A DNA stretch of 13,486 nucleotides, from IMG/VR virus record IMGVR_UViG_2534681899_000005; one strand, given 5' to 3'. The DNA is from a virus. Its lineage: Duplodnaviria; Heunggongvirae; Uroviricota; Caudoviricetes. Both the position numbers and the translations under genes were made by a program. The notes below the pieces were generated by a model. That model searched no databases. It was not told the DNA's origin and was given only the letters and a program-made list of their open reading frames with translations. Numbering within the stretch: position 1 is the stretch's first letter; each line of letters begins with the position of its first letter. Positions 1 through 13,486 of this stretch are shown here, piece by piece.

Positions 1-95
1 TTGGTGTGAACAGTCTTTCATGTTCTTTATGTATCAGTTGTCCTGTGTGGTGATTTGGTGGACTGCCCCAGGGGCCATACTTATGATGCCCGGTC
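1..95. repeat. Left copy of 95-bp terminal direct repeat
   Basis: Bases 1-95 are identical to 13392-13486. Contains CTGTGTGG and the inverted repeat GCCCCAGGGGC. The repeat is truncated by the window edge, so its true length may be larger. Confidence 0.9.
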
Positions 96-343
96 AACAT
101 AAGTGTCGATAAAATCAACGGGTGTTGATCTGCATATTTCCCACACATGAGAGGAAATCAGAGCAAAGAGAGAGGAGAGAGGTTTGCTAGTCAAATTAAA
201 GGATACTCCCACACAAGACAGTCTCATACATCAGATTTGAAGGGTGCTTATCTTTCCCCAGACTTGGCCCTTGACCTGTTGGGATTTCCTACAACCCCTT
301 TCAGTCATACTCAGGCACCACACCCCGGTAAATATTACCGCAC

Positions 344-541
344 TAACCTGTAAAGAATTTTCACACCTGTGTGTTTATACAGTCATACTCTCCTGTTTTG
401 CAGTCATTGCACCCATGATACACAGCCCCTAACCTGTCAAAATATTTTACTACCCCACCAATAATACGGCCCATACCTGTAAAATATTTTTACTACTACC
501 TGTCAAAATCTTTTACTACTACCTGTAAAAATATTTGACAC
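344..541. repeat. Iteron array: five direct 22-24-bp repeats, three contiguous; candidate replication origin
   Basis: Copies at 344-366, 430-453, 474-496, 497-519 and 520-541 share the core ACCTGT[A/C]AAAAT(A/C)TTTTACTAC; AT-rich context. Confidence 0.7.
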
Positions 542-1109
542 TAATAGATAAAGTAATAGACCACACAATAAATCCCCCCTAACCCCCCCAGGGGGAATGG
601 GGAGGGATCAGAGAGTGGGGAAGGTTTTCTAAGGGAAAAGCTTAACCCACAAATGAAAGCCTAAAGAGCATTAGTGACTCTTTAGGCAATCTGTGTGTGG
701 GTCACTCTGTGACTTTAGCTATACAGCTAAACCGACTACATCGGCCTGTGTGTGGGGTGACAATGTATTCCATACATGACACGTCACCCAATTGTGTGTG
801 GTCCGGCGAATGCGTCAGCATGAGGCCCACATGTGGACCGCTGCCGAAAGCTTGCCAGCGCCGGAAGGAGGCAGCAAAGAGTCTCCCGCGCTCATGTGTG
901 GGCGTATACGTAAGATATACATTCATAAATCCAATTCTAGGCACCTAAATGGCCTTCTGGCTGCATTAACCTGTGTGAGTAGTGCAATTGCATTACCTGA
1001 CCTCTAAATCGCGTTAGAATCGATTTTAGAGCGCTTAAGGCAAAAAGTGCCCTCCCTCCCTTGTGGGCTTGCTTGTACCTATAGCACACCTAAATGATAA
1101 TAATTCTCA

Positions 1110-1138
1110 TTGACAATTGGTTGACAATATGATAAGAT
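1110..1138 (+). promoter_or_regulatory. Candidate sigma70 promoter (TTGACA-17-TAAGAT), with a second TTGACAAT copy at 1121
   Basis: -35 TTGACA at 1110-1115 and -10-like TAAGAT at 1133-1138; TTGACAAT is duplicated 11 bp downstream. Confidence 0.3.
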
Positions 1139-1173
1139 TATAAATAGGGGGAGAAACAGATCCGGAGGTCAAT

Positions 1174-1323
1174 GTGGAAATTACTGATGCAATAGCGATC
1201 ATCAACCTGGCTGTACTGTGGTGCGGTGTTGCCTACATAGCCGGAGTAACTGCAATCGACAATCTTGAAGAAAAAATGATAGATAAATACAAAAAGATTG
1301 TTGACAATTTGACGAATGTCTGA
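1174..1323 (+). CDS. Hypothetical small hydrophobic peptide (49 codons, GTG start)
   Basis: GGAGG at 1164-1168 lies 5 nt before GTG 1174. The translation VEITDAIAIINLAVLWCGVAYIAGVTAIDNLEEKMIDKYKKIVDNLTNV has one predicted TM helix and a charged tail. Below the ORF-track size cutoff and overlaps the downstream promoter. Confidence 0.2.
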   Translation: MEITDAIAIINLAVLWCGVAYIAGVTAIDNLEEKMIDKYKKIVDNLTNV

Positions 1324-1329
1324 TAAAAT
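1301..1329 (+). promoter_or_regulatory. Strong sigma70-type promoter for the rightward Rep operon (TTGACA-17-TAAAAT)
   Basis: -35 TTGACA at 1301-1306, 17-bp spacer, -10 TAAAAT at 1324-1329; 125 bp upstream of the first operon ATG; near-identical to the minus-strand promoter at 10859-10887. Confidence 0.55.
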
Positions 1330-1454
1330 ATAAAGCATAGGGTAATTCTCATCATAGTGAATTTCCTTTAGTAGACTGGCGGGGGCTTGTATTAAGTTCC
1401 CGTTTCTTTTTAACCGTATATCGCACAGGCGGTGAGCTGACAGGAGATTGAATC

Positions 1455-1664
1455 ATGGCTAAAACCGGACCGATAAGCCAGCTTGTAAACTGGACTACTG
1501 ACGAAATCGTCGAGAACGTGCTTAAAGGTAACTTTCGAAAAACTTCCGTTTATGCATTTATTCGTAAACACAAAGGAGAATATCCACACATTGAAGCGGC
1601 AATAGAAAAACTTAACTTTATCCGTATTGAGCGTGAGCTGGAAAGATATAAACATCTACTTTGA
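1455..1664 (+). CDS. Small (69 aa) putative DNA-binding regulator
   Basis: ATG preceded by AGGAGA RBS; stop overlaps the TTG at 1661 of the next gene; basic, with an HTH-like segment (TTDEIVENVLKGNFRKTSVYAFIRKH). Family not recognised. Confidence 0.5.
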   Translation: MAKTGPISQLVNWTTDEIVENVLKGNFRKTSVYAFIRKHKGEYPHIEAAIEKLNFIRIERELERYKHLL

Positions 1665-1684
1665 TAAATAATTGTGAGGGAATT

Positions 1685-2590
1685 ATGGCAAACAATAAAC
1701 TGGGGGCACATTTCACCCCAATTTTTAAACGTTTCATCAAGTATAATTTTGAAAATCCAATTGCAAAAACTACAACAGGCAAAGAGAGATTTAATTTAAA
1801 TGCGACGGAATTGATAATTTACGGGGAAATGGTTGGCTTTCATTTAAACGGCAACGAAATATTCATCTCGGAGCAGACCTTAGCAGATGATTGGGATTTT
1901 TCAAGACCAACGATTATTAAAGCTATTAAATCTCTAGTAAATGCTGGGATTATTTCTAAAGATAACCGGAAAGGCAAATCTAACATTTACAAACTGTTAA
2001 TTACACCTGAGCAGTTTGATAAAATGTGCGATGAGCAGGGTATTAAAACCTTAGACAGTGTGGGAGACAGCAAAGAGGCACCTGCTACACAGGCCCAAGA
2101 TAATCAACAGGAAGCCCCAAAAAAAGCCGCACAGCAAGCTAAAAAGGCTAAAGTAGTGCAATTGCCTACCCAAGACACTAAAGCGCCTCAAATTAACGCT
2201 GTTAGTGACAAGCCACGCCGGGGCCGTCCTGTGAAAGATGCAACAGATGGAGGCTGGATCGCCCTGGGTGAGAGTGAGGCTAAAGGCATAATGCGATCAC
2301 TGTGGGAAAGCAAATACAAAGATTTAAACAAACGTCGCCCGATCCTTTTGTCAAAGATTCAGGAGGATTTTTACACCGCAGAAGAGGTAAGCCAACATAA
2401 AGGGAAAAGAGAGGGTGAAATCTGGAAACCGGAAGAATACTGGCATTTAACCAGACCTGTGTTTATTTTTGCAAATAAGCTTATTGGGATGGGATTTGAA
2501 ATATTGTTAGATAAAACCTGCGGAGATTATCCCGAAATATTGTGGAGAAATGTTAGAAAAAATAAAAAAGGCATTTTAGAGTTTAAATAA
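1685..2590 (+). CDS. Putative replication initiator / replisome-organiser-like protein (winged helix plus AT-hook)
   Basis: ATG 1685 with GAGGGA RBS (the track uses in-frame TTG 1661). N-terminal winged-helix-like region (..FISEQTLADDWDFSRPTIIKAIKSLVNAGIISKD..), P/Q/A/K-rich linker with AT-hook KPRRGRPVK, C-terminal domain. Iteron array lies about 1.1 kb upstream. Confidence 0.45.
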   Translation: MANNKLGAHFTPIFKRFIKYNFENPIAKTTTGKERFNLNATELIIYGEMVGFHLNGNEIFISEQTLADDWDFSRPTIIKAIKSLVNAGIISKDNRKGKSNIYKLLITPEQFDKMCDEQGIKTLDSVGDSKEAPATQAQDNQQEAPKKAAQQAKKAKVVQLPTQDTKAPQINAVSDKPRRGRPVKDATDGGWIALGESEAKGIMRSLWESKYKDLNKRRPILLSKIQEDFYTAEEVSQHKGKREGEIWKPEEYWHLTRPVFIFANKLIGMGFEILLDKTCGDYPEILWRNVRKNKKGILEFK

Positions 2591-2638
2591 AAACACTGAT
2601 AATCTTATTTTTTTACAGTATTCTAAAGGAAATTTAAA

Positions 2639-2785
2639 ATGTATGGCGATTTTGATTATTACCTGGAAAAGGAAAAATATTTTGAAGATGAACTATCACA
2701 ACATTTTTCATATTGGGAAGAATATTGTGGTTGGTTAGCTGAAGATCCAGCAGATGAAGAAAACGATTCTGACATCCCTTATTAA
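2639..2785 (+). CDS. Hypothetical small acidic protein (48 aa)
   Basis: ATG 2639 with AAAGGA RBS 8 nt upstream; translation MYGDFDYYLEKEKYFEDELSQHFSYWEEYCGWLAEDPADEENDSDIPY; below the track cutoff, found by hand. Confidence 0.3.
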   Translation: MYGDFDYYLEKEKYFEDELSQHFSYWEEYCGWLAEDPADEENDSDIPY

Positions 2786-2889
2786 TTAATATCCCCTGTT
2801 ATCCCCAAATAAACTAAATAAACTAATTACATATAGAACTAGAACTAGATTGATTTCTCTTTAATGTTAAATTGACTGGAGAATTAATC

Positions 2890-3375
2890 ATGTTCAAATC
2901 TGATCTTTCTGATTCCCAATTTGAAAAACTGGTAGCACTGCAGAAATATCTTCCCAGTGATGATCAACCAACACGACAGGCCAAACACTTATTAGTCGAG
3001 GGCTTTACCCCTGAATTCGTGGCGGAATATACAGGCGTTAAACTTGAGAAAGTCCAAAAACTATATAATGAATCCTGGAATCCACGGTGTCGAGTTCCCC
3101 TCAGTGTCTATAACGACACAGACAGAGATAGAAATGTCTTCGAAGATCGCCGCCGCAAATCTCTTTTAATGTGGAATTGCGGGATGAATATTGAAGAGAT
3201 AGCAAAAGAATTAAAAGTAACCTGCTTTCATATCTGGGGTTTGTTGAGTGAAATCCTGCCACGTAAGGAGCTTAATCAACGTTTGCCTAAGCCCGGTAGT
3301 CGTGCTTATCGCGAATTTATATTCATCTACCGCCGCCATAGCAATAAAGTCCGGAAAGCAATGCAGCGCAAATAG
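2890..3375 (+). CDS. Hypothetical DNA-binding protein with two HTH-like segments (161 aa)
   Basis: ATG 2890 with TGGAGA RBS (the track ORF starts at TTG 2872). Segments GFTPEFVAEYTGVKLEKVQKLY and GMNIEEIAKELKVTCFHIWGLL resemble resolvase or sigma-region-4 type HTH; basic C-terminus. Confidence 0.5.
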   Translation: MFKSDLSDSQFEKLVALQKYLPSDDQPTRQAKHLLVEGFTPEFVAEYTGVKLEKVQKLYNESWNPRCRVPLSVYNDTDRDRNVFEDRRRKSLLMWNCGMNIEEIAKELKVTCFHIWGLLSEILPRKELNQRLPKPGSRAYREFIFIYRRHSNKVRKAMQRK

Positions 3376-3433
3376 CTTATAGCCTTCACATATGCCGCAA
3401 GTTATTGATTCTGCCGTCCGGTAAATATGCCGG

Positions 3434-3907
3434 ATGGCTCATATAAATTTTAAGGAATTCCAAATGTCTCAAATCGCTAAATTATTATCCCAGGTTATCA
3501 AAGCTATCGACGCTGAAGATTCAAAAGTTCGCCAGGATCTTTTAGATGGCAAGTTTACCAACACCCTGGCATTTACCCGTGACAAAGAGCACTTCTTAAA
3601 GCACAGACATCACGCTTTCGCTGAATGCAAGTCCGCTAATGGTGATGTTTTCTATGTCGATTTGGTGGTTATGGCATGCCGGTTGTGGATGATTCAGGAC
3701 CTTATGCGCCAACACGGTGATGATCCTCTTATCAGCATGTGGAACAGCGCCCAGGATGGCTTTGTGATTGCTGCCTTATCTAAATCCATGATTGAGGCAG
3801 AAGGCGCAAGCCTTCAGAACATGGCAGATCTCTTTGAAATAAGCGTAGGAATGATGCAGACCATGCTGCAGGCGGTGAAGCCTCTCAAACTGGTTAATCT
3901 TGATTAA
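3434..3907 (+). CDS. Hypothetical protein (157 aa; alternative start ATG 3464)
   Basis: Long ORF co-directional with neighbours; ATG 3464 has a TAAGGAA RBS; no recognisable motifs. Confidence 0.5.
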   Translation: MAHINFKEFQMSQIAKLLSQVIKAIDAEDSKVRQDLLDGKFTNTLAFTRDKEHFLKHRHHAFAECKSANGDVFYVDLVVMACRLWMIQDLMRQHGDDPLISMWNSAQDGFVIAALSKSMIEAEGASLQNMADLFEISVGMMQTMLQAVKPLKLVNLD

Positions 3908-3922
3908 ACTATTGATAAATAA

Positions 3923-3947
3923 GCACTCCCCATTTTTTGGGGGGTGC
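3923..3947. other. Intergenic GC hairpin (GCACTCCCC-ATTTTTT-GGGGGGTGC)
   Basis: 9-bp stem with one G.T pair and a T-rich loop, between the 157-aa and 129-aa genes; no downstream U-tract on the plus strand. Confidence 0.4.
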
Positions 3948-3961
3948 ATCAATGAGAGGAT

Positions 3962-4351
3962 ATGCCTATGAATATTGAAGAAATGATAGTTGAATTCGAA
4001 GAGGGTGATTTCCTGGAGGATGGGGAGTTTAGTTACTCCCGTTTTAAACAGGCGTTATTTAGCAGCGAGGATAAACCACACGTTAGTGATCTTAACGACG
4101 ATGATTTATGTCGCTGGGTATGCACCCGCTTATATGAGGATGGAAAATATACAGGCCAAAACTTTCCAAATCTCTATTTCAAAGCACAAACATTTGAGGA
4201 AGGGCAAAGAGTGAAAAACCTGGTCGATAAAATGCTTTCAGCCGGATATTTGCATAAAGAATTATTAAATCCTAAAGCTGAAAGCAAGCGCCATTATATT
4301 TTTGTGTGGACTATTGGCGATAAGTGTCCACTAAGACGCAAAGGAAAATGA
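3962..4351 (+). CDS. Hypothetical acidic protein (129 aa; probable start ATG 3968)
   Basis: GAGAGGA RBS upstream; sits two genes before the tape-measure-like gene, so a tail-assembly-chaperone-like role is possible but unproven. Confidence 0.5.
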   Translation: MPMNIEEMIVEFEEGDFLEDGEFSYSRFKQALFSSEDKPHVSDLNDDDLCRWVCTRLYEDGKYTGQNFPNLYFKAQTFEEGQRVKNLVDKMLSAGYLHKELLNPKAESKRHYIFVWTIGDKCPLRRKGK

Positions 4352-4352
4352 T

Positions 4353-4589
4353 ATGAATACCTACGAAAAGATTTATCAAAAACTGGTTAAGGACTCCGAA
4401 GAGACGCACGAAGGGGTGACAGTAGGTCACCTGCCAGAGGCAGCGAAAGAGGGGGCCACCATTATTAAAAGTTGCTCCCACACAGAAGGCCTCTCAATCG
4501 AAGAGCTTGCGGAGAAATATAATATTGATAAAGAGGCCCTGAAAAGGGCTATTTCATTATCAAAATCTTTAAGACAGGGCGAGGTGTAA
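4353..4589 (+). CDS. Hypothetical protein (78 aa)
   Basis: ATG 1 nt after the preceding stop, AAGGA RBS; stop 3 nt before the tape-measure-like ATG, so tightly coupled. Confidence 0.5.
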   Translation: MNTYEKIYQKLVKDSEETHEGVTVGHLPEAAKEGATIIKSCSHTEGLSIEELAEKYNIDKEALKRAISLSKSLRQGEV

Positions 4590-4592
4590 GAG

Positions 4593-6719
4593 ATGGCAAT
4601 GAAGGAAGTCGCCAGACTAACAAACGTTATTTACTGGGATTCTGATAAATCCAGCTGGCGAAAAGAAGTTAAACGGCTTGAGGATTATAAAAAATCCTGG
4701 AAGAAAGCCACCGACGATATAGCTAAAGCGGATTTTAAATCGAATCAGGCTGTGCTCAGAACACAAAGAACACGCGCTAAGGTGGAAGAGCAGATTGCCA
4801 GAGCACAGAAGAAACAACGTGCTCAGGCTGTCAGCCGTCTGACCGGGGGCAATAATCCGGAGCTCTCCTCTATGCGCAAGTTCTACCAACAACAAGCCAG
4901 AGAAGCCGCCAGACAACAAAAACTGTTAGATCGTAGTGTTGGAGATGTTCAGCACAGAAAAGCACGTGTAGGGGCCAACAGTGCACGAATCAGCAGCATG
5001 TTTGATGGCTCCCTGGTTGCTCAGTTCCAATCCAGAATTCAGAGAGTTAATGCTGATTATGCTAAAGGGGCTATTAACCTGCAGACCTATAATCAGAAAA
5101 TGGCCCGACTCAGAGCTGAAATGAAGATGGCAACAGCAGAGGCCGGAAAATTTCAGAGCAGACTAGACAAAGCTGCGGTAGCAGGATCTAAGCTGCATGA
5201 CAACCTGGGGAAACTCAACTCCACACTTGGCAAGATAGCTATTGGCCTTACTGCCGCTGGCTGGGGTGTTCAGCGTGCTGTTAGTGGTGCTATGGGTAGC
5301 CTTGCAGATCGCAACAGTGCCTACTTCGGTTTGATGGCACAGAACAAGGATGATAAAGCCAAGACTGATCAGCAGATGGCTTTTATCAAGAACACAGCCT
5401 ACACCTACGGGATGGATGAGCGGGAGATGCAAGGTGGCTACATGCGCTTTGCTGCAGCTACCCCCACCATGAAGGAATCTGATAAGCAGGCTCTTTTTGA
5501 GGCTATGGCTATTAAAGGTCGCTCAGTGGGTGCTACTGGCGAGCAACAGAACAGGGCGCTTGTTGCGGTCCAACAAATGGCTTCAAAGGGAAAAGTTATG
5601 GCAGAAGAGCTGCGGGGCCAACTGTCAGAAGCCTTTGCAGGCTCACAACAGGATTTTCAACAGGCCGCTATTGATGCCGGAATCATCAAGAATGCCCAGG
5701 AATTCGATAAAGCCCTTAAAGATGGCAAAATCACCCTGGATAAGCTTCTCCCTTCTTTGGTGAAAATCTGGGGTGCTGCAAAAGAAACTAAAGCTTTTGC
5801 TGAATCCATGAAACAGCCAGAAGTAGCAATGCAGCGCATGAAAAACAGCTTTAACGAGCTGGCGATCCAGTTTATGGGTGTTGTAGATCCTGCAGATGGC
5901 GTTATTAGCTTATCTGAATCTCTGATCTCCATCTTCGAAGACCTCACTACTGATATGGACGGCAGCGGGAGCGCGGCAAAACAGTTTGGTGAGGCAGTCG
6001 GTGCTGCCATGCGGGAGATCATGTATTGGGTAGGCTTCGCTAAGGGATATATTGAGGTCAAGGCTAAAGAGTTCGGCATGACCGGATCAGAGGTTGGCGA
6101 GCTTATCGGGAAACTGGTAGTCGGCTTAGCTGGTCTGAAAGTTATTACCACACTGCTTTCCCCTCTAACCGGATTTGTTTCACTTGTCACCCAACTGATT
6201 TCTCTGATAGGCAAGATTCCAGGTCTGGGCAATCTCGTTAAGGGTGCAGGTGGTGCAGTCGCTGGAAGCCCAACAACAGCATTAGCCGCTGGCAGTGCCG
6301 CAGGTGTGGGTGTTGGTGTCGCTGGCGCACTGGGCGCTAAGACGGTAGGTGAGAAGTTCAGAGGATGGATGCAAAGCAAGGCTGATCAGTTCGGGGAGTG
6401 GGCTAAATCTAAAGGCCTGCTTAGCGATGAACAGGACGCTATGACCAAACCGGGGGCCTATAACCATAGCTACATCAACAAGGGAGCTTCTTTTAATCCA
6501 TATCCAACCATTAGCCCATCACGTCCTACTCCTAGCACTGGTACGGCTATTCAGAATGGTGGCTATCAACCTGCTCAGGTTAATGTGGTGCCTCAAGGTG
6601 AGATTTCCGGCAAATGGGAGATAACCATCGATGAGGGGGGAATTGCCAGGGTGATTCAGAAGGAAGTCAGCGATCAGTTGGATTGGAAAGCCACACAGGA
6701 ATCTAATCAGCTTTTCTAA
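4593..6719 (+). CDS. Phage tail tape-measure-like protein (708 aa)
   Basis: GAGGTG RBS then ATG 4593. N-terminal about 200 aa is Q/R/A/K-rich and coiled-coil-like; central ..GATGEQQNRALVAVQQMASKGKVMAEELRGQLSEAFAG.. resembles the conserved tape-measure core; C-terminal Gly/Ala-rich hydrophobic segments; no Walker A or catalytic motif seen. Confidence 0.6.
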   Translation: MAMKEVARLTNVIYWDSDKSSWRKEVKRLEDYKKSWKKATDDIAKADFKSNQAVLRTQRTRAKVEEQIARAQKKQRAQAVSRLTGGNNPELSSMRKFYQQQAREAARQQKLLDRSVGDVQHRKARVGANSARISSMFDGSLVAQFQSRIQRVNADYAKGAINLQTYNQKMARLRAEMKMATAEAGKFQSRLDKAAVAGSKLHDNLGKLNSTLGKIAIGLTAAGWGVQRAVSGAMGSLADRNSAYFGLMAQNKDDKAKTDQQMAFIKNTAYTYGMDEREMQGGYMRFAAATPTMKESDKQALFEAMAIKGRSVGATGEQQNRALVAVQQMASKGKVMAEELRGQLSEAFAGSQQDFQQAAIDAGIIKNAQEFDKALKDGKITLDKLLPSLVKIWGAAKETKAFAESMKQPEVAMQRMKNSFNELAIQFMGVVDPADGVISLSESLISIFEDLTTDMDGSGSAAKQFGEAVGAAMREIMYWVGFAKGYIEVKAKEFGMTGSEVGELIGKLVVGLAGLKVITTLLSPLTGFVSLVTQLISLIGKIPGLGNLVKGAGGAVAGSPTTALAAGSAAGVGVGVAGALGAKTVGEKFRGWMQSKADQFGEWAKSKGLLSDEQDAMTKPGAYNHSYINKGASFNPYPTISPSRPTPSTGTAIQNGGYQPAQVNVVPQGEISGKWEITIDEGGIARVIQKEVSDQLDWKATQESNQLF

Positions 6720-6792
6720 TGCTGGAAGATAGCGCAGCTTTACTGATATTGTGATCAAAATCAATAAGTTAGCCCGACCGGATAAACTCCAG

Positions 6793-6828
6793 GCAAGAAA
6801 AAAGCCCCTAAGTGTTAACAAAGGGGCT
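6793..6828 (-). terminator. Intrinsic terminator, clearest on the minus strand (possibly bidirectional)
   Basis: Stem AGCCCCT (6803-6809) / AGGGGCT (6822-6828) with a 12-nt loop. On the minus strand it is followed by TTTTTTCTT (complement of 6793-6802); on the plus strand only by CTCTTCTCC. Confidence 0.5.
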
Positions 6829-6849
6829 CTTCTCCGGTATCCTTTTGAT

Positions 6850-6964
6850 GCGGGGCGAACCTGCTAACAAAAATCAACCTCTCGCGAGACTAATGTTAGC
6901 AGGTTGCCGGAAGGTAAGTCAACTCCGGCCTATAAACCTTAAAGCGACTATAAAATCGCCCCGC
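6850..6964. other. Highly structured element with nested perfect inverted repeats (candidate structured RNA or protein-binding site)
   Basis: 9-bp outer stem GCGGGGCGA (6850-6858) / TCGCCCCGC (6956-6964) encloses a 10-bp stem CCTGCTAACA (6860-6869) / TGTTAGCAGG (6895-6904), whose loop holds the palindrome TCTCGCGAGA, plus hairpin GCCGGA / TCCGGC (6906-6929). Confidence 0.4.
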
Positions 6965-7246
6965 CAATTGTGATGATCCGACCTTTGAGGCGGGTCCGGT
7001 GCCCAGGGGGTGCAGTGATGCACAAACCAGGCAACGATAAACAGGCTAACAGTGATAGCGGCGCTCAATCAGCGCACTAAATCCTAACCAGTCCGGGAAA
7101 GAGGCTGGCTCTATCGACCGCTCATGCACGGGACAATGCATACCTGATAAAGGATTCTCACAAGGGACCAATCGCGAGAAAAGAAGTGGAAAGGGGCTGA
7201 TTTGTGGTGTATCACTACGGCCTCAAAAGAACACTATTGTCTTTTT

Positions 7247-7705
7247 TCAGCCTCTCCCCACATTTGACCAGTATTTGATTGCACCGATCAAATCATCATA
7301 GTGGCGCATTGCATCATTGAAGCCTTTATAGCTTGCCCATTGTGGGGAAACCTTGTTATTGCTGAATTGCCCACTAATCAGGATAGTCTCCAAAATGTCG
7401 GCGTATCGCTTGCCAATTCGCTTTCTGACGGCCTCAGAGCTCCCACCCTTTACGATTGCATTAATCAGGGCTTTTGTGTGTCTCAGGCTCTCATAGAGCA
7501 TTGCAGCGTGGGCAGATTCCATAAAGGAGCGCTTAGGCAGATCACCCCACCCCTCAGAATGAATTGCTGCCAGTGTGGCGTAATTCAGGCCGCTATAGTG
7601 TTTCCCGTCATCCCAGCCAACCGCTACACCTTCCATCTGTGAGAGCTCTTTATGCAGCTTATCCATCATGCGCTTGTCTATGGTGCAACGGACTTTCGGA
7701 CTCAT
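7247..7705 (-). CDS. Phage virion morphogenesis / head-tail joining protein (HK97 gp10 / Mu G-like), 152 aa
   Basis: Start overlaps the upstream stop by ATGA (7702-7705); motif ..NYATLAAIHSEGWGDLPKRSFMES.. resembles the Y-A-x-H-x-x-G...P-x-R-x-F signature of this family, recalled from memory. Confidence 0.4.
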   Translation of the reverse strand: MSPKVRCTIDKRMMDKLHKELSQMEGVAVGWDDGKHYSGLNYATLAAIHSEGWGDLPKRSFMESAHAAMLYESLRHTKALINAIVKGGSSEAVRKRIGKRYADILETILISGQFSNNKVSPQWASYKGFNDAMRHYDDLIGAIKYWSNVGRG

Positions 7706-8514
7706 TTGTTGATCTCCGTGATGTCATCGAGCAACATGTTGGCCTTATCAATCATCGTTTCGTGGAACTCATTCGACACAACAGACTTATCACCTGCGGC
7801 AATCTTTCCCGCTGCCTCTCCCTGTGCATATTCCCCGCGATGCTTAGCCCTGGTTGATTTCGTAGCAGCGTTGCCAGCGTTGCTACCCTCTTTAGCACTG
7901 TTAACAGCGCCCTTTTGCTGTGTTTTATTCACCTTCTTACTGTTAGTGAAAACTCCGGCATTTTCGACCATCTTCACCTTGAAGGTGCGGAATTCTTCAA
8001 AAGTGCAATCAATAGTGATGCAGTCACCAGAGGAAGAGCTACGCTTAACTTCACATTTCGTCATGATGAAGTTCTCAAGGAGTCCGGCATCTTCACTTAC
8101 CAGGCTAACTAGCTGGCGCTTGTCTCTCATTTCCATAAGTGCCTGAACAGCGGCAGCAGGGCGCATAGATTCACGGGGATTATCTGGATCAGTGTTCCGG
8201 TCGATGTAGTTCTCTTTCCGGATGATATGAGGGGAAGAGGTAATAATGCCCGTAAAGCTGACAGATTTATCTTTAATGACGGCATGGTCTGACATGGTGG
8301 TGCCATCCTCGACCGCATAGCTCGATTTCTCGACAGGGAACGAATAGCTGACATCAGAGATTGAGTCAAAGAAGATAGCCACGTTATCGGTATAGTTGAA
8401 GCCATCCATTATATTTTTGTTTTGTGAATATCCCCCACACATAACAGTGAATGCAGGAGATCTCGATTCAGCTTGTTTTGCAGCTGTCAGAGCATCACTA
8501 GCCATATTAAACAT
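7702..8514 (-). CDS. Hypothetical protein, possibly phage structural (270 aa)
   Basis: Long ORF in the capsid operon, translationally coupled to the next gene; C-terminal half is low-complexity K/A/G/N-rich; no family recognised. Confidence 0.45.
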   Translation of the reverse strand: MFNMASDALTAAKQAESRSPAFTVMCGGYSQNKNIMDGFNYTDNVAIFFDSISDVSYSFPVEKSSYAVEDGTTMSDHAVIKDKSVSFTGIITSSPHIIRKENYIDRNTDPDNPRESMRPAAAVQALMEMRDKRQLVSLVSEDAGLLENFIMTKCEVKRSSSSGDCITIDCTFEEFRTFKVKMVENAGVFTNSKKVNKTQQKGAVNSAKEGSNAGNAATKSTRAKHRGEYAQGEAAGKIAAGDKSVVSNEFHETMIDKANMLLDDITEINK

Positions 8515-8610
8515 GCCTCCAAAATGAATCTTTTCGTTGCCCTGCTTAAAATCTGCAGAAAATACAGGGCAGTTATTCGTTAGAATCGCTTATAGCTCTT
8601 CCCGAGAGCG

Positions 8611-8862
8611 TTATTTTGCAAAACGATTATGCGCATTCAGGGCTTTTTTGCGGTCCTGGGCTTGTTTGCGTGCAATAAAATGTTCGAAAGTCTCGGCCCA
8701 GGTGCATTTATTATATTCACGGTATTTATGCATAGCCTGGCGGCTAACGTCATAGCAGGCGGCAAATGTGGAGATACGCAGGAATTCCGGCAGATCCTCG
8801 TCATCGATATGGATAATATCAAAAGGCACGTCGTCACGGTCGCCGTATAAAACAATTTTCAT
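8611..8862 (-). CDS. Hypothetical small protein (83 aa from ATG; track ORF extends to GTG at 8871)
   Basis: GAGGTG RBS 6 nt before the ATG (complement of 8860-8862); acidic N-terminus, basic C-terminus with a possible HTH (FAACYDVSRQAMHKYRE). Confidence 0.4.
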   Translation of the reverse strand: MKIVLYGDRDDVPFDIIHIDDEDLPEFLRISTFAACYDVSRQAMHKYREYNKCTWAETFEHFIARKQAQDRKKALNAHNRFAK

Positions 8863-8975
8863 AAAAGACACCTCAAAAACTTAAGACGGGGATAATAAAA
8901 AAGGGAAGAGGGAAAGACCTATCCCCGATCTCTCACCTCTTCCCTTTGCTTTTATTTGGCCTTCGAAGAAGGACC

Positions 8976-10022
8976 TTATTTAGCCTTGGCTTTTGCCAGA
9001 GCAGCGGCGGCGGAGTTACTAACACTCACTTTAACCACAACTTCAGGCATCATGTTCATGAAAGCATAAGAGGATTCAATGAAGATTTCTCGTTTACCTC
9101 TGGACTCTTCCATATACATGAAAGCTTCACGTGCAGCGCCGTTTGCAAGCTTCAGGTTGCGAGCGCAAGGGCCGAAAAATTGAGTATAAACGCCCACCAT
9201 ATCGCCTAACGCATGCGGCTGGAACTGTGGGACCAGATAAGCAGTATTCTCTGGCAGACTATCCATTTGCACCACACGCAGAGCTAAGCCTGGAATGCGG
9301 AAAGTCGGGAAGCCCGGCAGAATATCCTCAGGGAACATCAGACCTTTATCGGTAATATTCTGATTGCCGAACAACAGCACTTTTCGCAACAGTTCATCAG
9401 TCTGAATTGCAGCAAAGAGTTCAGCACGGCAGAACAGGGTGAAACCACGCAGAGCACGAACGACACCACGCTGTTTAACCTTGCTCAGTGCAACCAGGTC
9501 CTGCAGTTGTTTGAGGATGTCTTGAGCTAGATCCACTTCAGAGGTGGACTGTTCCACGCCCAGCAGTTCGCACACATTCAGTTCTTTACCCTTGGTGAGG
9601 ATAATTTTGTTCTCAAAGAGAGCAAGCTGGCGTGCTTCTTCGTGGGTCTGGCGTAAGCCTTCACCCAACTGAATAACACGACGAGCGGTTACAGACTCTA
9701 AATTCTCTTCGGAATCTTTGCCCGGAACACGGATACCTTGCCAGTCAGAAGGATAAATAGCACTTGATGCGGCAGTGAATGCCATATCACCCGTGCCCGT
9801 TTCACGCTCATCTGCGGTAATGGTAGCCATCTGTTCACCGTAGCGCGGATACTGACCGAAAGCGGATTGTTTCACCTGGCGAACTTTGTCATATTCAAAT
9901 TTAAAGGTATTGCACAGAGCAGTAGTGTTGAAGATATCCATTGCTGAAATAATCTGGTTATCCAGCGGGATATCTTTAATCAGACCACACAGATCGCGAA
10001 CTTCGAATTCTTTCTTAGCCAT
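8976..10022 (-). CDS. Putative major capsid protein, lambda gpE-like (348 aa)
   Basis: ATG (complement of 10020-10022) with AAGGAGG RBS 6 nt upstream; the track ORF starts at in-frame TTG. Size and C-terminal segment (..KREIFIESSYAFMNMMPEVVVKV..) resemble lambda E-family capsid proteins as recalled; follows a ~110-aa gene as in lambda D-E. Not searched. Confidence 0.45.
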   Translation of the reverse strand: MAKKEFEVRDLCGLIKDIPLDNQIISAMDIFNTTALCNTFKFEYDKVRQVKQSAFGQYPRYGEQMATITADERETGTGDMAFTAASSAIYPSDWQGIRVPGKDSEENLESVTARRVIQLGEGLRQTHEEARQLALFENKIILTKGKELNVCELLGVEQSTSEVDLAQDILKQLQDLVALSKVKQRGVVRALRGFTLFCRAELFAAIQTDELLRKVLLFGNQNITDKGLMFPEDILPGFPTFRIPGLALRVVQMDSLPENTAYLVPQFQPHALGDMVGVYTQFFGPCARNLKLANGAAREAFMYMEESRGKREIFIESSYAFMNMMPEVVVKVSVSNSAAAALAKAKAK

Positions 10023-10033
10023 TTTCAACCTCC

Positions 10034-10369
10034 TTATTGTGCAACACGCAAATCGCCATTGCTGGCAGCAATAACAGCGGCTAAGCCGTCTTTATCCACG
10101 TAGGCCGGATTGATATAACAGCCCTTGTTGGCAACAACGATAAAAGCGTCGCCAACTTCAGCACGTTCTACAACCAGCAGCGGAGTTTTATCTGTGTGCG
10201 TTGCTTTAACGAAGGTCTCAACCTCGCCAGCCTCAGTTACCACAACAACAGTGCCAGCCGGAATCTCAGCTTTAACTTTGTTTTTAATTTCAACGTCGCG
10301 AATACTAAATTGCTCATCTGCGGCGTATGAAATGATGTGTCCGCGTGTGCGGATAGTCATATCTTTCAT
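10034..10369 (-). CDS. Putative head decoration protein, lambda gpD-like (111 aa)
   Basis: AGGTGA RBS then ATG (complement of 10367-10369); beta-rich small protein directly upstream of the capsid candidate; first gene after the promoter. Confidence 0.35.
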   Translation of the reverse strand: MKDMTIRTRGHIISYAADEQFSIRDVEIKNKVKAEIPAGTVVVVTEAGEVETFVKATHTDKTPLLVVERAEVGDAFIVVANKGCYINPAYVDKDGLAAVIAASNGDLRVAQ

Positions 10370-10667
10370 TTGATCACCTGCGATTTAAATTAACTCCCCT
10401 CAAAGAGTTCCGGTATAACCTCTCAAACCACGACAGGCTCGGGCCGAAAAGTTATGCCGGAAATCTAAAGGGAAATTGATACAAGGAGAGGGAGATAGCC
10501 CCGCACCGTCCAAGCGGGGGCTATTCCACATGGGGAAACCGACAACAGTCGGATGATAGTTCACAGTATGATTACGGTTACTAGAGAGCACTATCACGAA
10601 AGGCACTCCCCCGGATCAGTTCAGGCTGCGGTCACATCAGCGGGGAAATACCTTTCGGGATAGCTAC

Positions 10668-10701
10668 CCACACAGAAAACCCGCAAAAGAAAACTGTGTG
10701 G
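10668..10701. promoter_or_regulatory. Inverted repeat CCACACAG-N18-CTGTGTGG in the capsid-operon leader
   Basis: Perfect 8-bp arms at 10668-10675 and 10694-10701; lies in the roughly 480-nt leader between promoter and decoration gene; overlaps TGTGGATAA. Confidence 0.35.
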
Positions 10702-10850
10702 ATAACTAGCCCAATAGGAGAATTAATCGACCACTCAACGATGATCAGGGTAGTGTTATTTATAAGGCGGCACCGCTACCTGGTCGCCTTTACTTTGGAG
10801 GAAAATACGGCAAATCAAGATCTTCTCAAATGATATTGATTCCATACTAT

Positions 10851-10870
10851 ACTGTATATTATATCAGTAT
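10851..10870. promoter_or_regulatory. LexA-box-like palindrome (SOS operator candidate)
   Basis: Minus strand reads TACTGATATAATATACAGTA, which keeps CTG-N10-CAG with an AT-rich spacer (consensus TACTGTATATATATACAGTA); overlaps the -10 of the capsid-operon promoter. Confidence 0.5.
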
Positions 10871-10887
10871 TCTCTCAAATTGTCAAC
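10859..10887 (-). promoter_or_regulatory. Consensus sigma70 promoter for the leftward capsid operon (TTGACA-17-TATAAT)
   Basis: Minus strand reads gtgTTGACAatttgagagaatactgaTATAATat: -35 at 10882-10887, -10 at 10859-10864, exact 17-bp spacer. Confidence 0.6.
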
Positions 10888-11193
10888 ACCCTGATTATAT
10901 AAATTCTAATAATTAGCGTGGTAACTGTATTTTCAGACCTCTATCAATCCCATCAATACGTCACCCCACCCTTTAGATGCATACATCCGACCTACTTTGT
11001 AGGCTTGGCGTACTGCCAAGGTCGCAGCTATGCGACTCCTATCTATCACCACTTTATAAAGCTTGATAGATATCTTTTGATCAATATCAATGTTTTCCAG
11101 GGATTTACCCGGCTATAGTTCGAATCAAGGAAGGGGAGCATTGATAGCACCCAACCGAGCAAACAAATCAACTTCTCGCAAAAGGTGATAGTT

Positions 11194-11316
11194 ATGGGTA
11201 TCAAGAACAGTGCCAGCGCATGGCAAAAGGCCAGGTTTCATCACCCACACATTGTTAAGGCAATTGAGGTGGTTGGAGTTTTAGCCCTGATGTTAGCTCT
11301 GTGTGTGGAGGTGTGA
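11194..11316 (+). CDS. Hypothetical small hydrophobic peptide (40 aa)
   Basis: AAGGTGA RBS 6 nt before the ATG; translation MGIKNSASAWQKARFHHPHIVKAIEVVGVLALMLALCVEV has a C-terminal TM-like segment; its leader shares a 15-nt motif with the 173-aa gene leader. Confidence 0.25.
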   Translation: MGIKNSASAWQKARFHHPHIVKAIEVVGVLALMLALCVEV

Positions 11317-11380
11317 GATAGGCAAAGGAGGCAAAGCATTTTTTAATAGGTCTGGCAGTCTTAGATTTTGTATTAATCAT

Positions 11381-11423
11381 CATTGAGCGGAGTTTATGAA
11401 CAGCATTGAGAGGAGTTTATGAC
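11381..11423 (+). repeat. Tandem duplication of a translation-initiation region, with an 8-codon upstream ORF coupled by ATGA
   Basis: CATTGAGCGGAGTTTATGAA (11381-11400) is followed by a near-identical second copy (11404-11423, CATTGAGAGGAGTTTATGAC); mini-ORF 11396-11422 (MNSIERSL) stops at TGA overlapping the main ATG at 11419. Confidence 0.45.
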
Positions 11424-11679
11424 GGGGGCTAAAGATATCAGGAGACTGAGGGAAGAGCTGATAGCTGAAATTAAAGCTAAGGCAAAGCAAATGGAGATAG
11501 CCGCACAAATGGATGTAGCGGAACAGATGTACAAGATGGTTGAAGAGGGAACACCACGACAGGTTATCGCTAAAACCTTCGGTGTGGGGATCGCCACCGT
11601 GCACAGAAGGCTGAAAGCCTATGCCGACTACCACAATATCGAGAGAAAGGAGGATGGGAGATTTAAGAAGAATAAATAG
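11419..11679 (+). CDS. Small HTH DNA-binding protein (resolvase/Fis-type HTH), 86 aa
   Basis: GAGAGGAG RBS; coiled-coil-like N-terminus; C-terminal GTPRQVIAKTFGVGIATVHRRLKAY matches the Hin/resolvase-type HTH pattern; no recombinase catalytic domain. Confidence 0.5.
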   Translation: MTGAKDIRRLREELIAEIKAKAKQMEIAAQMDVAEQMYKMVEEGTPRQVIAKTFGVGIATVHRRLKAYADYHNIERKEDGRFKKNK

Positions 11680-11736
11680 TAGGAACAGTCCAACAGGTTA
11701 TTAACTAAATTCAACTTCTCGCAAAGGGGTACCATT

Positions 11737-12258
11737 ATGTTATTTCAGAAAGATAAAGAATCAGTAAATAAAAGGCTTTTTAAAGAACTGGTAAAAATGT
11801 TCTTTCAGTACACTGCAGCGTTTTTGATAGCCGGGCCTTGGTTAATGGCTATCTGTTTTTACCCTGCTACCTTGTTTATTGGCAGTAGCAAGTTCGGCGA
11901 TGGCCCGTTTCATGTGGATATTGGTTTTATAGATTCTCTCCTGATCCGTCCTATAAATGCTGTTCTCAATGCTTTCTACTTCCCCACTAGTCTAGAGGGG
12001 TGGGCGGTAACCTGGGGTGTTTTAGGCTTAGCATATGTATATTGGTTGGTTGGCTTTTTGTGGGGTGCAATCTGTGCTCTCCTCGATATTGATACAGGAT
12101 CAAGCCGTAGGAGTGGTGGTAATAATAGCGGAGCGGGTGTATATGCACATGTAGGCACCAGGGGAGCTAGTGTTACCGCAGGTACCCGATTCGCTGGCGG
12201 CTGGCTGAGCATAGGCAAACGCGGCGTTAGTTGGAGAAAAAGCAAAAAACTGTTCTGA
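11737..12258 (+). CDS. Hypothetical membrane protein (173 aa, 2-3 predicted TM helices)
   Basis: ATG 11737 with a leader containing TCAACTTCTCGCAAA; hydrophobic segments (AAFLIAGPWLMAICFYPATLFIG; GWAVTWGVLGLAYVYWLVGFLWGAICALL); Gly/Ser/Arg-rich tail; followed by a terminator. Confidence 0.5.
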   Translation: MLFQKDKESVNKRLFKELVKMFFQYTAAFLIAGPWLMAICFYPATLFIGSSKFGDGPFHVDIGFIDSLLIRPINAVLNAFYFPTSLEGWAVTWGVLGLAYVYWLVGFLWGAICALLDIDTGSSRRSGGNNSGAGVYAHVGTRGASVTAGTRFAGGWLSIGKRGVSWRKSKKLF

Positions 12259-12265
12259 CCTACCA

Positions 12266-12292
12266 GGGGGGCCATCACGGCCCCTTTTTATT
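12266..12292 (+). terminator. Rho-independent terminator
   Basis: GC stem GGGGCC / GGCCCC with loop ATCAC, followed by TTTTTATTTAT; 8 nt after the stop at 12258. Confidence 0.75.
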
Positions 12293-12366
12293 TATCCCTT
12301 ATTTACACTCCTTTCAGTCCTGATCATCACTCCCTACGGTAATGAGCAATTAACCCCTATTTAAGG

Positions 12367-12408
12367 GGTATTTAATGGGTATTTAATGCCTATTTATTGA
12401 TTTAATCC
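12367..12408. repeat. 11-bp tandem repeats (GGTATTTAATG x2 plus degenerate copies)
   Basis: GGTATTTAATG at 12367-12377 and 12378-12388, then CCTATTTATTG and ATTTAATCC; preceded by CCCCTATTTAAGGGG; related palindrome GGTATTAATACC at 12871-12882. Confidence 0.5.
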
Positions 12409-13099
12409 GTTTTATGCCACAACCGCCCGGTTGACAGAGTAAGAGAGAGGGTGTAACCCTTTTTCGTAAAACCAATAAAATCAATAGCTTAGCTCAATTG
12501 GCCTTTTCTCTGTTTTTGTCAAATTTAACATGCCCTCAAAAACTGCAAAATCTGGCTGCAAGATTATCTGCAGCTGGATTTCTTACACCTCAATTTGTGG
12601 TATCACCCTGACTAGTTTGTGCATAAAATGAACAGTTTTTAACATTTCCTATTCACCTGGTAACCACACAAAAAGCTAAAAACGAGGCACAGATAATCTT
12701 AGAGGCCTGTTTTCTTGTTATCACTCTGGGAACGTCGTAGAAGTGATTTTGATGAAAGACGGCCTACCCTATTACACCCCCATTTTTTGTTATCACAATT
12801 GCATCCTGTGCGGTATATGACTATGTGCTGAAAGCGGTCTCAGGTGTGGGTGTCAGAAATATCCATTAGCGGTATTAATACCCGTCAGATGTTCGTCTGA
12901 GGTGCCAGGCAGGCGCTCCCCTACCTCCCCTTTTTCTTCTAACAATTCTCAAATATCACACCACTGCCCACCACGTTGCTATTATGTTAATTCTTAAGCT
13001 TTGCTTTATGTTGTGCACATTATTTATTCAGGTGCGTGTACGTAAATTCTGGGCCTCCTTATCACGATTTTTAAATCAGATTTTGTAGTGCGCTTTATT

Positions 13100-13127
13100 A
13101 GTGTAGATAAGATCTATTATGTTAAAT
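13100..13127 (+). promoter_or_regulatory. Candidate Xer recombination site (dif/psi-like)
   Basis: AGTGTAGATAA-GATCTA-TTATGTTAAAT: right arm is identical to the E. coli dif XerD arm as recalled; 6-bp centre resembles pSC101 psi (GATCCA); left arm is degenerate versus GGTGCGCATAA (5 of 11). Confidence 0.35.
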
Positions 13128-13391
13128 GCAATTTTCCCAACCCTTCAAATCAATGACTTACATGTAAGCATGCACTAACACCCCACACAGCACATTAGAC
13201 GTGTAGATGTCCATATCCCACATTTTTGATTGTTTTGTAGTCATTCCCCTGATCATTTAACCAGTATAGTTTGTTCTCTGCAGACCACAAAATCGGAATT
13301 TACATCTGATTAACATAATCTGTTAGCATGATCACCATTACCCACACAACAATAACCCCATGCAAGCCTCTTCAGGCAATTTATCGGCGTG

Positions 13392-13486
13392 TTGGTGTGA
13401 ACAGTCTTTCATGTTCTTTATGTATCAGTTGTCCTGTGTGGTGATTTGGTGGACTGCCCCAGGGGCCATACTTATGATGCCCGGTC
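13392..13486. repeat. Right copy of 95-bp terminal direct repeat
   Basis: Exact match to 1-95 on the same strand. Confidence 0.9.

Follow-up and report, generated by a model that had tools for sequence, protein, structure and literature searches.

The stretch of DNA analysed here (the window) comprises 13,486 nucleotides of a virus record assigned to the Caudoviricetes, IMGVR_UViG_2534681899_000005, and carries head and tail genes related to those of rV5-like phages next to a replication module. Bases 1-95 are identical to bases 13392-13486, an overlap that marks a circular junction and leaves a unit of 13,391 bp. The same element is found as closed circular Escherichia coli plasmids (13,238-13,697 bp, 91-96% identity), and a metagenome copy is circular as well (55-nt overlap, unit 13,840 bp); there are at least nine closed or circular copies of 13.2-13.8 kb. 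Circularity, which a first-pass annotation of the window had put forward for checking, is confirmed by the terminal identity and by the closed circular relatives. Searches with megablast and blastn detected the element in seven of 5,426 complete E. coli genomes, as a plasmid in every case and at no chromosomal place, and blastn found no diverged DNA relatives in the chromosomes of these genomes. The idea that the window is an internal piece of a larger prophage fails because its copies are closed or circular, are never chromosomal and have no diverged chromosomal relatives. The window is a whole replicon, autonomous and circular, with its own Rep and iterons and without an integrase.

Head and tail genes on a circular plasmid

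The element has about 15 genes, and 35% of it is non-coding. The isolates that host it as a plasmid are diverse and come from humans, pigs, chickens and cattle on several continents, and as a plasmid it is typed non-mobilizable. An iteron/Rep replication module had been noted in the first-pass annotation and is borne out by four iterons and a Rep protein with matches to initiator profiles.

432..542, + strand: four iterons of 22-23 bp, ACCTGTCAAAATATTTTACTAC, whose sequence varies with Rep between sister plasmids
1661..2590, + strand: Rep initiator, winged helix-turn-helix (wHTH), phage RepO-like (HTH_36/DnaD_N and PHROG replication initiators)

Rep and iterons are hypervariable among plasmids that are otherwise 93-96% identical (Rep dN 0.32). 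The tape measure gene lies on the + strand and converges with a structural operon on the - strand, in which the gene order is decoration candidate (Dec), major capsid protein, p86, tube initiator, Ne1.

4593..6719, + strand: tape measure protein (TMP), 708 aa (PF20155 1.8e-13; phrog_5255 1e-194; PDB 9cuy_W 1e-20)
7247..7705, - strand: Ne1 neck/tail-completion protein, 152 aa (phrog_222 8e-29)
7702..8514, - strand: tail tube initiator (Dit-like), 270 aa (PF21821 2e-25; PDB 9cuy_K 'Tube initiator protein' 1e-34)
8611..8871, - strand: p86 protein between capsid protein and tube initiator, 86 aa (a small open reading frame (ORF) is found here in all three lineages described below)
8976..10028, - strand: major capsid protein (MCP), 350 aa (phrog_29 3e-21; divergent PF03864, lambda gpE-type)
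10034..10369, - strand: putative head decoration protein, 111 aa (position and size only)

The genes first described as capsid-like and tape-measure-like hold up, the former as MCP through phrog_29 and the PF03864 family profile and the latter as TMP through PF20155, phrog_5255 and PDB 9cuy_W. The gene at 7247-7705, first called 'gp10-like', does belong to the virion, but phrog_222 makes it an Ne1 neck/tail-completion gene; searches of the PDB gave no informative sequence match for Ne1. The tube initiator at 7702-8514 is a virion gene that had been left unnamed. As to the decoration-like gene, an ORF of the right position and size is present, but sequence and structure comparison gave no firm match: hhalign against the rV5 decoration protein yielded a weak hit (E 0.024, probability 2%), and a single-sequence structure model had a pLDDT of 47, which was low, and was not used. 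The 111-aa product is upstream of the MCP, in the decoration-then-MCP order of rV5, and from its size and this position we regard it as a putative decoration protein.

The MCP has no direct Pfam match, but 23 of 26 family members collected with HMMER match PF03864 (best 1.4e-58), a significant profile match that places it in this family by way of its relatives. The family profile also matches solved capsids, including Phi92 gp124, at 1e-48. The lineage is rare, since 29 of 1.84 billion cluster representatives match it. At 90% identity the MCP cluster has 441 members, and nearly all sequences of the related clusters come from contigs with a length of about 13.4-14.3 kb. A tblastn search of the MCP against phages gave no match, pattern scans with the MCP and its 43% relative found no relatives in GTDB genomes, and a metagenome scan returned nothing beyond the same plasmid family. 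The 26-sequence MCP profile is too diverse for use in pattern scans.

We scanned for missing functions with Pfam, PHROGs and NCBIfam in every ORF of at least 60 aa that was treated as a candidate gene. None of these scans turned up a gene for terminase, portal, protease, tube, sheath or integrase, in agreement with the first-pass annotation, and baseplate, lysis and primase genes were likewise not found. No ORF gave a credible match to a PADLOC defence model. Rfam at E <= 1 returned only a weak ctRNA match, which falls on a terminator hairpin, and the search for tRNA genes was negative.

Some records of the element depart from the closed 13-kb form. NZ_CP043822.1 (39,610 bp) is a head-to-tail trimer of the plasmid in which many ORFs are broken in one copy; the trimer may be genuine, or long-read assembly may have produced it. 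On the metagenome contig ERZ506993 (15,489 nt) there are two distinct Rep regions and the ends do not overlap; two plasmid variants that occur together were probably merged in its assembly. NTNY01000053.1 (GCA_002463705.1) is a contig of 30,105 nt with an insertion between the Ne1 and TMP genes, by implication roughly 16.7 kb long. Encoded in the insert (about 13400-21041) are aminoglycoside phosphotransferases of the strA/strB type, a TetR-family regulator and an IS transposase, so the element is able to carry antibiotic resistance.

Homology to rV5-like phages and related lineages

All plasmid proteins were compared by tblastn with one complete rV5 genome, which is 136 kb long with about 219 annotated features and holds a full virion, replication and lysis set. 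Exactly four of them matched.

Tube initiator with the rV5 gene directly after TMP: 51% identity, E 2e-61
Ne1 with the rV5 Ne1 neck protein: 45% identity, E 7e-35
TMP with the rV5 TMP: 26% identity over 584 aa, E 2e-21
MCP with the rV5 major head protein: 24% identity, E 6e-10

Residues 4-494 of the TMP are 26% identical to the rV5 TMP (778 aa), while the C-terminal ~175 aa (window 6192-6719) are hypervariable between plasmids (dN 0.39). Among 50,697 phage records the best matches to the tube initiator are Vequintaviruses at ~50%, followed by related myoviruses of ~145-150 kb. Vequintaviruses are strictly virulent. The MG0656xx 'Campylobacter phage' records (mostly 128-141 kb) give the same matches as E. 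coli rV5-like phages and are probably Vequintaviruses whose host was misassigned.

A non-coding element next to the plasmid origin is also common to the two.

773..1000, + strand: non-coding array next to the origin, with homology to the intergenic DNA that comes after wHTH initiator gene, iterons and AT-rich stretch in rV5
831..891, + strand: 61-nt core hairpin, 85-87% identity to 121 phage genomes, nearly all rV5-like

The 61-nt match (E 2e-10) falls in unannotated phage DNA, and homology around the hairpin spans about 220 nt. Within the plasmid array each variable hairpin is followed by TGTGTGG. The rV5 counterpart sits in a 660-nt gap in which a small wHTH gene, four iterons and an AT-rich stretch precede the shared element; the last iteron and the element are 284 nt apart in rV5 and 289 nt apart in the plasmid, and the plasmid iterons differ from those of rV5. 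In rV5_ev147 the origin-like region at ~63.7-64.8 kb consists of the wHTH gene, four palindromic iterons CTGTCCGTGATACGGACAC, AT-rich DNA and a structured GC-rich region. The wHTH gene upstream of the shared element is annotated as a replication initiator or regulator, and plasmid Rep is 26% identical to the small wHTH initiator-like protein of rV5 (pairwise E 9e-5).

The core stem exists in three versions between the conserved flanks ATGTGGA...GAGTCTCCCGCGC, each of them self-complementary.

Plasmid type A: GCTGCC/GGCAGC
Plasmid type B: GTCCGGAT/ATCCGGAC
rV5: ACCGAC/GTCGGT

In the hairpin alignment 95.7% of cells are paired, where shuffles give 81.9 +/- 2.0% (0/500). Covariation scores 0.43 compared with 0.19 in shuffles (0/500), and slid controls pair at 29-55%. 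As there are only three independent stem versions, the covariation is good rather than overwhelming. A 24-nt stretch of the window (12934-12957) is 96% identical to rV5 104,374-104,397, within the phage's second TGTGTGG-rich, ORF-poor region, with a few weaker matches nearby; this marginal match may mark a second cis element common to plasmid and phage. Protein homology together with the origin-region element supports the rV5-like Vequintaviruses as the candidate helper group, a specific helper link that is made in silico. Plasmid and rV5-like phages have in common homologous MCP, TMP, tube initiator and Ne1 proteins, the decoration-then-MCP order, the origin-adjacent hairpin and an enrichment of TGTGTGG, and they differ in that a 136-kb phage with a full gene set stands against 13.4 kb and ~15 genes, with protein identities of just 24-51%.

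The structural genes are under purifying selection. Across nine plasmids, in which all ORFs are intact, dN/dS is 0.01 for Ne1, 0.07 for Dec, 0.08 for the MCP, 0.12 for the tube initiator and 0.14 for the N-terminal part of the TMP. The cassette is also kept in divergent relatives. A second lineage (contigs L017/L018) has Dec, MCP, the small ORF, tube initiator and Ne1 in the same order, with identities of 49, 40, 35, 47 and 41% to the window (47-50% for Dec across the lineage). In a third (L024), whose proteins are 29-46% identical to those of the window, a 107-aa ORF with no detectable similarity occupies the Dec position and is followed by MCP, small ORF and tube initiator, with no Ne1. Identity to rV5 is 46-51% for the tube initiator and 41-45% for Ne1 in lineages 1 and 2, and 54% for the lineage 3 tube initiator. 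Because rV5 is at much the same distance from lineage 1 as from lineage 2, the module is old, separate and maintained, not a recent deletion derivative. The low dN/dS and the retention of the cassette in divergent lineages exclude decay and refute the alternative, offered in the first-pass annotation, that the window is a decayed prophage fragment.

A short match to the non-coding region 6790-7246 led to a more remote relative, a ~12.7-kb island adjoining sodB in Klebsiella pneumoniae NZ_CP074582.1 (~83.0-95.7 kb). It encodes a tyrosine integrase, a Rep-like wHTH protein, an Ant-like protein and a Dec-like ORF followed by an MCP. Also encoded are a serine recombinase that shares 35% identity with the resolvase of lineage 2 and a protein of 602 aa whose homologue in lineage 3 is the product of the large convergent gene. 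Neither this 602-aa protein nor its 545-aa lineage 3 homologue, considered as TMPs, gave a family match. The island appears to be a distant integrated cousin, which suggests that the plasmids form one branch within a larger group of Dec-MCP-based elements, some of them integrated like classical satellites. NZ_CP074582.1 is labelled a plasmid and yet bears the chromosomal-type genes purR, sodB, grxD and rnt.

Non-coding elements, promoters and remaining reading frames

Three non-coding stretches are better conserved than the genes: 6790-7246, a ~480-nt leader, and 12600-200 across the junction.

6790..7246, - strand: non-coding element between the convergent TMP and Ne1 genes, 99% conserved (RNA fold z = -6.2)
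10370..10851, - strand: structured leader of the structural operon, ~480 nt, conserved (fold z = -6.05)
12600..13391, no strand assigned: ORF-free region running into 1-200, ~96% conserved, with several TGTGTGG copies

The minus-strand RNA of 6790..7246 ends in an intrinsic terminator at about 6838-6797. Its islands GATAAACAGGC, ATACCTGATAAAG and CTATTGTCTTTTT recur in lineage 3, and conserved islands are also present in the Klebsiella island; the element is a candidate packaging site or non-coding RNA. Within the leader a CCACACA/TGTGTGG inverted pair forms a long stem, and lineage 3 likewise has a leader, of ~620 nt. The leader may act as a regulatory RNA or as a target of antitermination. 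None of the three stretches has an Rfam match. Taken together they are candidates for a packaging site, regulatory RNAs, or both.

TGTGTGG/CCACACA occurs 21 times per unit (for example at 44, 141, 209, 561, 694, 749, 795, 895, 10668, 10695, 11245, 11302, 12664, 13183 and 13342), a ~14-fold excess over the 1.4-1.5 or so copies expected, and 14-19 times in other family members, and it is enriched in 10 of 10. Non-coding DNA holds 15 of the 21 copies. The motif frequently sits immediately 3' of a variable hairpin, or two inverted copies form a long stem. No extended consensus was found around the motif. The rV5 copies cluster at the putative origin (64-68 kb) and in the ORF-poor DNA at 104-108 kb.

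Promoter-like sequences and possible operators are as follows.

1110..1138, + strand: promoter-like P1, TTGACA-17-TAAGAT, upstream of a 49-aa ORF
1301..1329, + strand: promoter-like P2, TTGACA-17-TAAAAT, with an inverted repeat, sequence-related to the capsid-operon promoter
10858..10886, - strand: perfect consensus sigma-70 promoter of the structural operon, TTGACA-17-TATAAT with TG, invariant in 9/9 plasmids
10848..10867, no strand assigned: LexA-box-like palindrome TACTGTATATTATATCAGTA, TACTG-N10-CAGTA, over the -10 hexamer, intact in 4/9 plasmids
367..382, no strand assigned: CTGT-N8-ACAG site beside the iterons, resembling both iteron and LexA box, spacer not conserved

The palindrome at 10848..10867 is a credible LexA operator, placed as expected of a repressor site. 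It surfaced only with the looser pattern CTGT-N8-ACAG; the exact LexA consensus 20-mer gave no match at up to three mismatches. The first-pass annotation had called the structural genes SOS-wired, and this is partly supported: in the window the box overlies the -10 hexamer, but a 1-nt deletion takes out the left CTG in 5/9 plasmids, and the promoters of the cassette in lineages 2 and 3 show no evident box. SOS control is therefore perhaps a trait of this variant and not family-defining.

The remaining genes and a terminator complete the map.

1174..1323, + strand: small hydrophobic protein, 49 aa (homologue WP_157794903.1 annotated in sister plasmids; coordinates read by eye)
1455..1664, + strand: 69-aa ORF upstream of Rep (dN/dS 0.24)
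2872..3375, + strand: p167, tandem helix-turn-helix (HTH) DNA-binding protein, 167 aa (profile and structure model)
3434..3907, + strand: p157 protein, 157 aa (no homologues outside the family; dN/dS 0.07)
3962..4351, + strand: p129 protein, 129 aa, upstream of TMP (no informative matches)
4353..4589, + strand: p78 protein, 78 aa, weak HTH matches, directly upstream of TMP
11419..11679, + strand: resolvase-type HTH (HTH_7) protein, 86 aa, catalytic domain absent (dN/dS 0.07)
11737..12258, + strand: predicted membrane protein, 173 aa, hypervariable between plasmids (dN 0.38)
12265-12287: terminator after the membrane protein gene

The 86-aa HTH_7 protein (11419..11679) is a candidate regulator. 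We considered p167 as a small terminase, but its model (pLDDT 75) retrieved only generic tandem-HTH folds with Foldseek and nothing at E <= 0.001. PDB searches gave no informative sequence match for p157 or p167. A reading of p129 and p78 as a frameshifted pair of tail-assembly chaperones was likewise set aside: slippery site and similarity are both absent, and the analogy is positional only. The hypervariable TMP C-terminus, Rep with its iterons, and the membrane protein look like exchanged or diversifying cassettes, which suggests diversification of replicon specificity and of cell entry or exclusion functions.

A proposed satellite and its alternatives

We think it rather probable that the window belongs to a family, not described before, of satellites that reside in the cell as plasmids and have rV5-like virulent myoviruses as their helpers. 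The new satellite type envisaged in the first-pass annotation is supported in silico and now has a candidate helper group, named by protein homology and by the shared origin-region element. The narrow 13.2-13.8-kb range of the unit fits a packaging constraint, and the divergence pattern fits a satellite as well, in that the parts that would dock onto helper structures (tube initiator and Ne1) are 45-51% identical to rV5, compared with 24% for the MCP of a self-assembling shell.

The proposed cycle would run as follows. In the uninfected cell the plasmid would replicate through Rep and the iterons, while LexA (in this variant), a plasmid HTH protein or the long structured leader would keep the structural promoter down. 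Upon infection by an rV5-like phage, the helper-like origin element would give the plasmid access to the replication machinery of the phage, and the genes of the structural operon would be expressed. Plasmid MCP and decoration protein would then build a small shell for about 13-14 kb on the portal, scaffold and protease of the helper, whose terminase would package the plasmid DNA, possibly by recognizing one of the ultra-conserved non-coding regions. Plasmid TMP, tube initiator and Ne1 would replace the helper's ruler, tube starter and tube-end protein, and the helper would give baseplate, tube, sheath and fibres, resulting in a particle with a satellite-specified tail. The C-terminus of the TMP, which probably acts at cell entry, would differ between the particles of plasmid variants. 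Such particles would carry the plasmid to new cells, where it would be re-established without integration.

In this cycle encapsidation and the helper-dependent packaging and transfer of the plasmid are predictions. Several observations weigh against the proposal. A shell on the helper's portal and scaffold takes for granted the fit of an MCP that is only 24% identical. No packaging-specificity protein was found, p167 being merely a generic tandem-HTH protein, and no pac or cos site was identified. Pattern scans with the MCP and its 43% relative found no MCP relatives in IMG/VR viral contigs, and phage records contain no nucleotide match to the element except the 61-mer at 831-891. The type B core of the hairpin has no phage counterpart among those found, and the rV5 'origin' is deduced from its layout; the literature searched contained no description of it as a phage origin. 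The 30-kb copy with the resistance transposon is too big for a small capsid. Finally, with identities to rV5 proteins of merely 24-51%, the true helper may be an unsampled relative.

The strongest competing explanation, which we nonetheless consider unlikely, is an anti-phage interference plasmid whose diverged head and tail parts act as dominant-negative or decoy subunits and poison rV5-like assembly while the plasmid itself stays unpackaged. Tail-assembly interference is a documented defence strategy of mobile elements, and the tube initiator and Ne1 (45-51% to rV5) are similar enough to enter helper assemblies; the non-mobilizable type and the failure to find a packaging protein are in keeping with this explanation. 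It does not account, however, for the strong conservation of the MCP and its decoration partner, the former being too diverged at 24% identity to co-assemble, nor for the helper-like origin element and the narrow 13.2-13.8-kb size, and no ORF matches a PADLOC defence model. Known satellites pair interference with their own transfer, which makes it more a component of the satellite model than an alternative to it.

An appreciably less probable explanation is that the element is one segment of a helper-independent split phage system, with portal, terminase, tube, sheath and baseplate encoded on a co-resident replicon or prophage. Most virion genes are indeed missing from the element, and a head-to-tail trimer record and a distant integrated cousin exist. 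Against this, the structural genes have no DNA relatives elsewhere in the 5,426 complete E. coli genomes, the seven hosts included, the closest homologues of tube initiator and Ne1 belong to strictly virulent phages that leave no prophage, and the host isolates are diverse (human, pig, chicken and bovine, from several continents). That the element is a cryptic plasmid with a functionless, decaying fragment of phage DNA would agree with its partial virion gene set and its 35% of non-coding DNA, and is nevertheless highly improbable given dN/dS of 0.01-0.14 on all structural genes, ORFs intact in nine copies, a cassette order kept at 35-49% identity in lineage 2 and partly in lineage 3, and non-coding regions that are strongly structured and conserved beyond the genes.

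The satellite that we favour does not fall into a published class. A complete virion gene set is absent, as in satellites. The element has the replicon of a phage-plasmid but not the complete phage: there are 5-6 structural genes, and packaging and lysis genes were not found in the candidate-ORF scans, in accord with the first-pass view that it is not a complete phage. Integrase is a core gene in all four published satellite families (PMC10085698). The P4-like core comprises integrase, the Psu-Delta-Sid operon, alpha primase and AlpA (PMC10085698), all undetected in the candidate ORFs. The definition of PICIs, islands integrated in the chromosome that have an integrase, a regulator, a primase/replicase and either terS or a capsid-redirection module, does not apply to an element with no chromosomal place in 5,426 genomes, in which integrase, primase and terS were not found. 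Capsid-forming PICIs (cfPICIs) have integrase, primase, terL/terS, head-tail adaptor, connector and protease, with tail genes as 'forbidden components' (PMC10085698); here the MCP and the decoration candidate are the only cfPICI-like genes, no adaptor, connector, terL, terS, protease or integrase was found, and TMP, tube initiator and Ne1 are present. It is no PLE either, being an E. coli plasmid without an integrase; PLE markers went undetected by name in general scans that included no PLE-specific profiles. The first-pass statement that the gene content is unlike that of P4-like elements, PICIs, cfPICIs and PLEs is upheld in that it fails their published definitions (PMC10085698).

By analogy the element would work most like a PLE, given a virulent myovirus helper and its own initiator, and would be cfPICI-like in having its own capsid. 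PLEs are integrated islands of Vibrio cholerae with ICP1 as the helper, and they remodel the helper coat protein by means of a scaffold and are not known to encode an MCP of their own. Both kinds of element are small (13-18 kb) and apparently dedicated to one virulent myovirus group, and both have their own replication initiator and origin, with the helper replisome presumed and helper virion parts expected. PLEs are integrated and have an integrase, whereas this element is a free plasmid with genes of its own for MCP, decoration candidate, TMP, tube initiator and Ne1. With cfPICIs, whose median size of 14 kb (PMC10085698) is near that of the element, it has in common an MCP of its own and a helper that would supply the remaining virion. 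Unlike them it is without packaging and connector genes and has three tail genes, and where cfPICIs take whole helper tails it appears to specify the tail ruler. P4 resembles it in plasmid maintenance in E. coli, in a myovirus helper steered to a small capsid (here proposed) and in a decoration-type function (Psu). P4 differs in having an integrase, alpha primase-helicase, the external scaffold Sid and the helper's own capsid protein, genes undetected here, and in its temperate helper (P2), in place of which we propose a virulent 136-kb phage.

A plasmid acting as an inovirus satellite has reportedly been described by Schmid et al. 2024. It is alike in being an autonomous plasmid that serves as a satellite (here proposed) and unlike in its filamentous helper and its lack of tailed-phage capsid and tail genes. 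According to a 2025 review it is the only phage satellite shown to be a plasmid, and others may remain unknown (PMC12282955). The Streptomyces satellites MiniFlayer and MulchRoom have their own encapsidation genes, one of them apparently being non-integrating with a virulent helper, and they are missing key replication genes, with replication dependent on the helper (PMC10690885). The element described here is the reverse, an autonomous replicon with a fragmentary virion set, and the two are not known to be related. Literature searches for satellites of rV5 or Vequintavirus brought up nothing relevant. To our knowledge, neither a satellite-encoded tail ruler nor a plasmid-living satellite of a virulent tailed helper has been described.

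The analysis supports, in silico, a new family within the known kind 'phage satellite'. More tentatively, and with somewhat less than even confidence, we suggest that it is the first representative of a widespread and so far unrecognized superfamily of small elements that parasitize large virulent myoviruses and are built on a Dec-MCP pair, to which a tube initiator and a large TMP-sized protein are usually added. E. coli plasmids, unplaced metagenomic lineages and integrase-bearing Klebsiella islands would be its members. They would remodel both ends of the helper virion, making a small head of their own and setting tail length and the ejected tape measure, and would have copied the helper-origin hairpin for replication by the phage.

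If the proposal is true, it extends the satellite lifestyle to a free, integrase-less plasmid with a tailed-phage helper, the helper being a strictly virulent, broad-host-range group of E. coli phages. It would also account for part of the 'non-mobilizable' plasmids that have no known transfer route. rV5-like phages are widely used in therapy cocktails and typing sets, and a plasmid that hijacks or blocks them would bear on therapy outcome and on the spread of resistance genes. The system is tractable, with E. coli hosts and rV5-like phages (e.g. from the BASEL collection) at hand, and a satellite with its own tape measure, tube initiator and tube-end protein would make tail length and the entry function of the TMP testable in a 13-kb system.

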